64,000 nt of DNA from a virus. Its lineage: Duplodnaviria; Caudoviricetes. Both the position numbers and the translations under genes were made by a program. Within the stretch, counting starts at the first letter, position 1. Every line of letters begins with the position of its first letter. The stretch is taken from the IMG/VR virus record IMGVR_UViG_3300017989_000087, positions 22,829 through 86,828 of that record. One strand, 5' to 3'. The notes beneath the pieces are model-generated. The model saw only the letters and a list, made by a program, of their open reading frames with translations. It was not told the origin of the DNA and made no database searches. This document shows, piece after piece, positions 17,549 to 18,568 of this stretch.

Positions 17549-18568
17549 TCTTTCCACCTCAAGTAATAATTTGGGTCTTCTTTTGGAACCATGCCTTCAT
17601 ATATATTCTTGTAATACTCTCCTATTTTCTTTGGGCTATGAAACGTTGATGCCCATGCTATACGTTGTTTCTCTGTCCTTTTATATGTATCGTAATCAAA
17701 CAATGTTGCCTTCAATGCGTCAACAAAACCATTTATATCGCATGATTTTATTGTACAGCCGGGATAGAACTGACCATAATTTGGATCTATCCAAGCCAGA
17801 ACAACATTGCCCAATAACATTGCCTCTATTGCTGCAACACCATAGCACCCTATGTTAAATTGGTCAACATATATATCTGAAATTTTCATCATTTGCAAAG
17901 ATTCCCAATGTGTCTTATTTTTACATAGTAATATATTAATATTGTTATAGTTATTTTTCATAAATCTTATACCATTCATTATTGGCCTTGTTCCCTTTAT
18001 TCCCACATTTGTTGTTGTGTGCAATATGGTCAATTCATCGTCATAACCAACTCTCACATCGCCCATTGAAGATTTTGAACAAACATAATATGGATCTATA
18101 GAAACGGGATTGGGAACAAAAAATGTTTTATCAGAATATTTTTTTGGTATATATTGAAGCAAATCTGGCGTAGAAACAAATATGTATTTTGCTACGTTAT
18201 TCAATGTTTTTGAACCACCATACATTCTAAGATATGAACCGTGATAATGTAGATATATTGGTTTTCCCGAAGGGAGAATTCTGCTTTTGACTATTTCTGG
18301 CAATCCATAGGTTGAATGAATATGGTATACATCTGCCTCATCAAAATTGTTATCATAAAAACATCTAGAAATATTGTCCTTGCTTCTTGGTATTGGTGTT
18401 ATAACATCTTCTGGATATTTGATATAAGCGTCACTATATATACTCCATTGTCTTGAATATGTTCCTGCCCTTGTTTCAAATTTGGACAAGAGATATGGGA
18501 CATTTGCAAGATTCCAGCCTAGTAAGATTCTTACATAGATTCTGTCCTGTCAAATGCAAAACAAACAT
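17545..18568 (-). CDS. GT-B glycosyltransferase interrupted by a 28-nt insert (331 aa if spliced)
   Basis: GGAGGTG RBS plus ATG at 18568. Removing 18512-18539 gives MFVLHLTGQNLANVPYLLSKF, in frame with the 17545..18489 ORF (DIYVDQFNIGCYGVAAIEAM). Confidence 0.75.
18512..18539 (-). other. Candidate bulge-helix-bulge-type intron (28 nt)
   Basis: Self-complementary insert flanked by paired exon stems with AAU bulges at both junctions; excision restores the reading frame. Confidence 0.55.

Follow-up and report, generated by a model that had tools for sequence, protein, structure and literature searches.

The locus considered here raises the question whether a viral gene that is broken in the DNA could be repaired in the RNA. 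A glycosyltransferase (GT) gene of the GT-B/GT4 class on the minus strand, at positions 17545-18568 of the window (the whole 64,000-nt stretch of viral DNA that was analysed), was found by reading the sequence to be split between two frames. A sequence-only reading of this DNA had explained the split by a 28-nt bulge-helix-bulge (BHB) intron, which the virus would have removed by the tRNA-splicing endonuclease (EndA) of an archaeal host. The arrangement it described can be read directly in the sequence: a GGAGGTG motif and an ATG at 18568, coupled to an upstream TAA, open a frame that stops after 30 codons (Table 1). The GT frame lies at +1 relative to this ATG2 frame. It opens at 18549, directly 3' of a TGA (18552-18550), and continues to 17545. 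Deletion of 18512-18539 fuses the two frames and yields the peptide that had been predicted, MFVLHLTGQNLANVPYLLSKF. The upstream 23-codon ORF starts at an ATG (ATG1) which is the GT start codon of a sister virus, and its TAA overlaps ATG2 (TAATG), which couples its termination to the start of the GT in this virus. This ORF opens with N-L-x-x-P-Y-L, a faint likeness to the NLANVPYL of the GT. The direct repeat GAATCT reported at both junctions is present (18542-18537 and 18514-18509) and occurs a third time in the hairpin loop (18530-18525). Since it stands at both junctions, 28 nt can be deleted in seven registers that all give one identical product and mRNA.

Table 1. Features of the split glycosyltransferase locus, in window coordinates.
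Feature	Position	Strand	Description and basis
Upstream 23-codon ORF, MNLLFPYLRGYKKEVVKKILEVE and stop	18568..18639	minus	From ATG1 (18639); corresponds to the 71-nt insertion; sequence read and pairwise alignment with L005
Shine-Dalgarno-like GGAGGTG	18574..18580	minus	5 nt 5' of ATG2; sequence read
ATG2	18568-18566	minus	Opens MFVLHLTGQNLCKNLTRLESCKCPISLVQI
Candidate exon 1	18540..18568	minus	ATG2 and 26 nt, giving MFVLHLTGQ and the first two bases of an N codon; translation
28-nt insert, candidate BHB mini-intron, UCUAUGUAAGAAUCUUACUAGGCUGGAA	18512..18539	minus	Absence in sister and orthologue loci
Inner hairpin of the insert, CUA-U-GUAAG, loop AAU, CUUAC-UAG(G)	18518..18539	minus	RNAfold minimum free energy (MFE) structure, pair probabilities 0.97-1.0
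Whole folded element	18500..18557	minus	Outer helix GCAUUUG (18557-18551)/CAAAUGU (18506-18500), CAGG/CUUG, central CAG/CUG, AAU/GAA bulges at the junctions
Candidate exon 2, the GT-B/GT4 body	17545..18511	minus	Last base of the N codon (LANVPYLLSKF...) to the stop
TGA closing the unspliced ATG2 frame after 30 codons	18476..18478	minus	Sequence read

The comparison with related viruses shows which DNA was gained. In a DNA alignment, a sister virus that is ~93% identical over 22 kb lacks exactly the 28 nt (loci L005, L006 and L014). The insert is also missing from the orthologue loci L003, L004 and L012, where the DNA is uninterrupted; these three are the orthologue DNA compared at the insertion site, and P0003, which has an atypical N-terminus, was left out. 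The absence of the insert from homologous viral GTs, which the sequence-only reading had suggested as a check, thus holds for the sister and all orthologue DNA compared. The alignment without gaps to the neighbouring paralogue, on which that reading had relied, is weak. Instead, the predicted spliced N-terminus matches true orthologues exactly and without gaps (P0005, MEILHMAGQNLANVPYLLS; P0004, MKILHAAGMNLANVPYLL; P0022, MYVAHITGQNLANVPYLLSKF). P0022, a 331-aa protein in the same 90% cluster as the window protein, is encoded on contigs of the sister virus, and the orthologues P0004 and P0005 (48-58% identity) begin M-x-I-L-H-x-x-G-Q/M-N-L-A-N-V-P-Y-L-L. The 90% clusters of the orthologues contain intact forms only. 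Removal of the 28 nt restores the gene, which would be true of any insertion and is therefore not evidence for splicing.

The insert is identical in the loci L007, L008 and L009; the ENA and Logan assemblies agree on it, and so do the contigs from four DNA sequencing runs. No RNA run containing this stretch was found listed. Its presence in independent assemblies rules out the assembly artefact that had been raised as a concern. The carriers differ by 0-2 bases in 6 kb and thus represent one clone. IMG/VR held no further carriers or relatives of the insert, the JGI metagenomes yielded only the intact loci L012 and L013, the GTDB genomes yielded only distant GTs, and 401 Bathyarchaeia genomes gave no match. 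No second copy of the insert was found in the window, the genome or IMG/VR, and no source copy of either inserted piece (71 nt and 28 nt) in the genome or the fetched loci. The insert is neither a clean tandem duplication nor a copy of any genome sequence. The three copies of GAATCT and a loose likeness of the insert halves to the start of exon 2 hint at an origin by duplication or slippage.

Within the 22 kb aligned to the sister virus, the large indels are inteins at different sites in NrdD and the 5' end of the GT gene, besides a few small indels. The GT 5' end comprises 122 nt here and 23 nt in the sister, and the 99 extra bases consist of 71 nt, which carry the upstream ORF and the new ribosome-binding site, and the 28 nt of the insert. 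Of the 33 aligned nt between the two insertions, which correspond to exon 1, 12 differ from the sister, and the flanks are 94-98% identical. Five of these 12 differences are synonymous, and only three residues are changed (F/Y, L/A and L/I), none of them the H, G, Q or N of the family motif. Since the family motif and a strong ribosome-binding site were kept despite 12 nucleotide differences, exon 1 appears to be maintained as coding sequence. Its substitution pattern suggests a coding stretch acquired from a more remote relative rather than drift. The 28-nt insert borders the 3' edge of this patch, the only strongly diverged one in the alignment, and one untidy recombination event could have made both the 71-nt and the 28-nt insertion. 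The 71-nt insertion was also considered as a second intron and rejected, as it shows BHB-like pairing in no register.

Two other genes stand out in the same comparison. In NrdD (window 25958-27546, minus strand; L014 7259-8855), each virus carries an intein-sized insert of ~1 kb at a different site, with the extra DNA at ~26577-27545 of the window and at ~7868-8854 of L014, which points to probable independent intein invasion or loss. The UDG gene (20511-21000, minus strand) has a dN/dS of ~1.3 against the sister (24 non-synonymous and 4 synonymous differences), and the other genes tested range from 0.03 to 0.14.

The protein encoded by the restored frame has the features of a GT-B/GT4 enzyme. 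It has no Pfam match of its own and only weak sequence links to Glyco_transf_4. The AlphaFold model reached a pLDDT of 90.5 with 18 homologues and of 42 with 5 sequences. It shows two Rossmann-like domains and an N-terminal beta-1 strand (residues 2-9) followed by a loop and the alpha-1 helix (residues 14-24), with the insertion site between N10 and L11. Foldseek matched the model to BshA, MshA and PimA at E ~1e-11 and TM 0.6-0.7; these GT4 retaining glycosyltransferases share the GT-B fold, but their identity to the viral GT is just 11-15%. The M-x-I-L-H N-terminus is conserved down to 25% identity. The gene body is 94% identical to that of the sister, and its dN/dS of 0.065 at a dS of 0.33 indicates strong purifying selection, with neighbouring genes at 0.03-0.14. 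The relaxed selection that the sequence-only reading had named as the mark of a pseudogene is thus not seen in the GT body. Polarised with outgroups, one derived replacement falls on the insert branch and six on the sister branch, and seven are ambiguous. By these substitution counts, the GT gene has not spent any appreciable time evolving as a pseudogene.

The RNA fold was compared with a BHB topology derived from tRNA numbering, in which each strand consists of a helix, a 4-nt central strand, a 3-nt bulge and a helix, and is cut after the second bulge base. This topology agrees with PMC4090602, according to which the intron pairs, within the central helix, with the first two bases of the anticodon. 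Among the seven registers, BHB-type pairing exists only with cuts after 18540 and 18512, and cutting there, after the second base of each bulge, would remove the 28 nt as proposed. In this register, 3/4 positions of the central helix, 4/4 of the outer helix and 2/2 of the inner helix are paired. Such pairing arose in 0.48% of 200,000 trials with a random 28-nt insert and a 6-nt repeat, and at 0.05-0.07% of positions in real genome sequence at a spacing of 28. The motif is relaxed, and both irregularities conceded beforehand are present: the central helix has C-G, A-U and G-C pairs and an A.G mismatch in place of four pairs, and an extra unpaired G lies opposite the 5' bulge. The central helix is therefore acceptable only as a relaxed motif. 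Both flanking helices have at least 2 bp; the outer one pairs at 4/4 positions and is extended by 7 bp past a 1-nt bulge, and the inner one has 2 bp in the strict register or 3+5 bp with a G bulged.

All helices listed in the sequence-only reading exist, but the structure it drew is not the MFE structure (-14.9 vs -17.9 kcal/mol). The strict-register version has -13.0 kcal/mol, so that the MFE fold is more stable than the BHB-register conformers by 3-5 kcal/mol. An AAU bulge can be placed at each junction in the correct topology, and the cuts would then excise exactly 28 nt; the MFE fold instead pairs the U at the third position of each AAU (A-U and U-G), so that CAG/CUG remains as a 3-bp helix with a GAA bulge of 3 nt on one side and an AA bulge of 2 nt on the other. 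The MFE has a z-score of -2.1, with 4/200 shuffles as good, and the intact alleles have no significant structure at the site (z = +0.5, +0.45 and -1.0). With the protein kept fixed, the core pair count was reached in 37% of synonymous resamplings; the 7-bp outer helix was matched in 5.6% of them and the full set of pairs in 3.2%. Of the synonymous recodings, 4% matched the MFE of the whole fold (p = 0.04). Much of the pairing thus comes free with the codons for T-G-Q-N-L-A-N-V. Since the pairing between the exons is largely forced by the protein, the specific information consists of ~5 nt at the 3' end of the insert and the inner hairpin. Relaxed BHB motifs are frequent by chance, with ~5,400 matches per strand in a genome-wide scan, and such scans with or without an ORF-joining filter returned thousands of chance matches and were uninformative. 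No Rfam family matches the folded region.

Splicing of this kind would depend on the host. Genes for terminase, portal, major capsid protein and tape measure mark the record as that of a tailed virus, and it also encodes PolB, NrdD and UDG. All named relatives of PolB are archaeal, and relatives of the GT were found on contigs binned as Bathyarchaeota and Thorarchaeota MAGs. Homologues of the capsid protein with 36-42% identity occur in 42/301 Bathyarchaeia genomes and in 0/201 genomes of a bacterial control phylum, and some of the former lie hundreds of kb into their contigs, as for integrated proviruses. On this indirect evidence, the virus is probably archaeal, and Bathyarchaeia are its likely hosts. 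NrdD is uninformative on the host, with bacteria and archaea mixed at 62-68% identity. EndA was found in 61/61 Bathyarchaeia genomes (G001-G061), and in 52/61 the EndA family is represented by two genes of ~180-200 aa that lie at separate loci, which is consistent with a heterotetrameric splicing endonuclease. The two-gene architecture has been described as lenient to relaxed motifs (PMC4090602; PMC2738675). No viral EndA or RtcB was found within the 62% of the virus genome that was examined.

The capsid homologues of the Bathyarchaeia genomes include some interrupted genes of their own. Two of them (L024 on G066:C10 and L025 on G145:C4) have an in-frame stop, TAA in one and TAG in the other, at the conserved Gln of EAAQYRDE, and G145:C4 also has three tandem copies of the C-terminal capsid segment. 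A third split capsid gene (L023 on G277:C8, ~83,500-83,600) was considered as a related intron and rejected. It contains no insert and is interrupted by a 1-nt frameshift at an A-run between TPTGTK and GPLIGDS, which could reflect an error in sequencing, a pseudogene or a slippery site.

The reading favoured here, tentatively and with a substantial chance of being wrong, is that the 28 nt at 18512-18539 would be a relaxed BHB mini-intron in the viral GT pre-mRNA, spliced by the host. Exon 1 would pair with exon 2 (7 bp and 4 bp), and the CUGG at the 3' end of the insert would pair with the ACAG of the Gln codon region, placing each junction in an AAU bulge. The tRNA-splicing endonuclease of the host, an alpha2-beta2 enzyme if this is a Bathyarchaeon, would cut each strand after the second bulge base. 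The ligase RtcB would then join CAGAA to UCUUGC, giving a full-length enzyme that begins MFVLHLTGQNLANVPYLL and contains the junction-spanning peptide QNLANVPYLLSK, and unspliced mRNA would give a 30-residue peptide only. That the site is transcribed, that the RNA is cut and ligated, and that this has a regulatory role, such as the switching-on of the GT in the sequence-only reading, is what we infer. A fuller scenario, held with slightly more reserve, is that a Bathyarchaeia virus would make this GT only after host endonuclease and ligase have excised the intron 29 nt past the start, with ribosome loading competing with splicing. In it, the intron would have come with the recombined 5' cassette and would be part of a wider population of mobile BHB mini-introns in the protein genes of archaeal viruses.

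A plain gene-breaking insertion that is never spliced is almost as likely as the intron. A recent rearrangement would have swapped the first 33 nt for a 132-nt foreign or filler patch, made up of the 71-nt upstream ORF, the diverged exon 1 and the 28 nt, creating a frameshifted, non-functional and undecayed GT allele. Slippage between the GAATCT copies across the hairpin might even revert it at the DNA level, which would make the allele phase-variable. Direct repeats around a hairpin are a classic substrate for deletion or duplication, and here 6-nt direct repeats flank the hairpin in an insert at the edge of the diverged patch, beside a second insertion. The relaxed BHB motif that is not the MFE fold also fits this reading, as does the single clone of carriers, whose allele could be very young. 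A recent lesion would leave the gene body intact, and the two paralogous GTs that adjoin the split gene might render it dispensable. What speaks against a mere lesion is that BHB-type pairing in the correct register is expected by chance in only ~0.5% of cases and that the insert is neither a genome copy nor a clean tandem duplication. Furthermore, exon 1 has kept its coding constraint together with the strong ribosome-binding site, the insert branch has no excess of residue changes, and none of the four runs contains a contig lacking the insert, although contigs hide rare variants. The evidence for the intron comprises the register-specific pairing, the structured and non-duplicative insert, the preserved start region, the absence of decay and a plausible lenient host enzyme. 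The non-canonical motif, the clonal lineage, the edge of the recombined patch and the triple GAATCT argue against it. The earlier interpretation thus stands as far as a real, lineage-specific and frame-breaking insert with one BHB-like register is concerned, in a probably archaeal virus with a lenient EndA in its likely host class. It is weakened by a relaxed motif outside the MFE structure, by pairing that is mostly dictated by the protein and by the restriction to a single lineage, and a recombination scar fits equally.

The two other explanations place the solution in translation, and both are improbable. In the recoding model, the ribosome would take off at one AAU (18541-18539), hop over the hairpin and land on another (18513-18511), or a +1 shift within the insert would produce the GT with nine additional residues. 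Analogues of the hop are T4 gene 60 and the mitochondrial 'byp' elements. As in gene 60, the codons at both ends of the gap match, here as identical take-off and landing AAU codons (in GAAUCU) 28 nt apart, and a hairpin stands at the take-off site, starting from the last base of the take-off codon. Unlike in gene 60, the take-off codon is not succeeded by a stop or a rare codon: CUA comes next, with a share of 11% among Leu codons, and AGG makes up 18% of Arg codons. Moreover, the nascent chain has only 10 residues at take-off and could not form a peptide signal of the gene-60 type, a hopping ribosome would first reach the third in-frame AAU, which lies in the hairpin loop, and the host is probably archaeal. 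To our knowledge, translational bypassing has not been described in archaea. A +1 shift would put the nine residues into the loop between beta-1 and alpha-1. The genome does encode an odd tRNA with an 8-nt anticodon loop that would suit recoding, but the GGAU of its four-base reading is absent from the frame overlap, and a shift at GGAC would lose the conserved GQ that exon 1 keeps. Quadruplet decoding by this tRNA was rejected for these reasons, and codon usage led to the rejection of a frameshift or bypass at a hungry codon. Slightly less probable still is a truncated GT, started at the TTG at 18489 or by reinitiation after the 30-codon ORF, as the functional product, with the upstream pieces as leader peptides. 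Gene callers annotate this 314-aa TTG form, termination-reinitiation is geometrically possible since the 30-codon ORF ends 11 nt 3' of the TTG, and the gene body is under purifying selection. However, the TTG has no ribosome-binding site, and the form lacks residues 1-17, which comprise all of beta-1 and the start of alpha-1 in the N-terminal Rossmann domain, a part modelled with pLDDT >90 and conserved family-wide. With beta-1 lost, an internal start could hardly rescue the enzyme, and the truncated form is structurally implausible according to the model.

The viral tRNA is an observation in its own right. It lies at 43781-43854 on the minus strand, scores 51 bits with Rfam and carries G3:U70 and A73, the identity set of alanine. 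Its 8-nt anticodon loop (CAAUCCAG) contains no alanine anticodon, and ARAGORN assigns it the 4-base anticodon AUCC. Judging from these features, it could be a recoding or mis-charging tRNA, and no link between it and the GT frameshift was found.

If the insert is spliced, expression of a structural-modification gene in this virus hinges on tRNA-processing enzymes of the host. In that case, gene callers systematically truncate such genes, and short BHB introns are shown to move between viral genomes. If it is not spliced, the locus is an ordinary young null allele. The sister allele without the insert provides a clean natural control.

Tiny insertions that vary between lineages in the protein genes of an archaeal virus have a parallel in the 12-bp indel elements of the rudivirus SIRV1, once called putative introns (Peng et al. 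2004, as cited in PMC2738675). As far as they are described there, these elements have lengths that are multiples of 12 bp, leave the reading frame intact and lack a BHB, whereas the viral insert has 28 nt, which is not a multiple of 12, breaks the frame and is structured. Among archaeal coding sequences, endonuclease-dependent splicing has published confirmation in a single gene family, cbf5, to which one 5' UTR can be added; for the protein genes of viruses, no report of a BHB intron was found in the literature. The cbf5 mRNA intron is the closest precedent, followed by the UTR intron of HVO_1309. BHB introns in cbf5 pre-mRNA were reportedly described by Watanabe in 2002. In Haloferax volcanii, HVO_1309 has a canonical 46-nt BHB intron in its 5' UTR, confirmed by circRNA-seq and in vitro cleavage (PMC7714728). 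As proposed for the viral candidate, the endonuclease acts there on an mRNA close to its 5' end, possibly with an effect on expression, but the HVO_1309 intron is longer, lies in a UTR and is canonical, whereas the viral insert is a relaxed candidate of 28 nt in coding sequence. The cbf5 introns of Desulfurococcales and Sulfolobales measure 16-44 bp, and their motifs are often relaxed (Yokobori 2009, PMC2738675). The 28 nt of the viral insert fall within this range, which may be counted in favour of the intron by analogy. Both are short inserts in coding sequence that gene callers take for a frameshift. The splicing of cbf5 was shown experimentally and its intron is conserved in many species, whereas the viral candidate was seen in the DNA of one lineage, in a GT gene, 29 nt past the start. 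Splicing of cbf5 relies on the tRNA endonuclease in a lineage whose enzyme is heterotetrameric, and it is to this system that the candidate insert may be likened.
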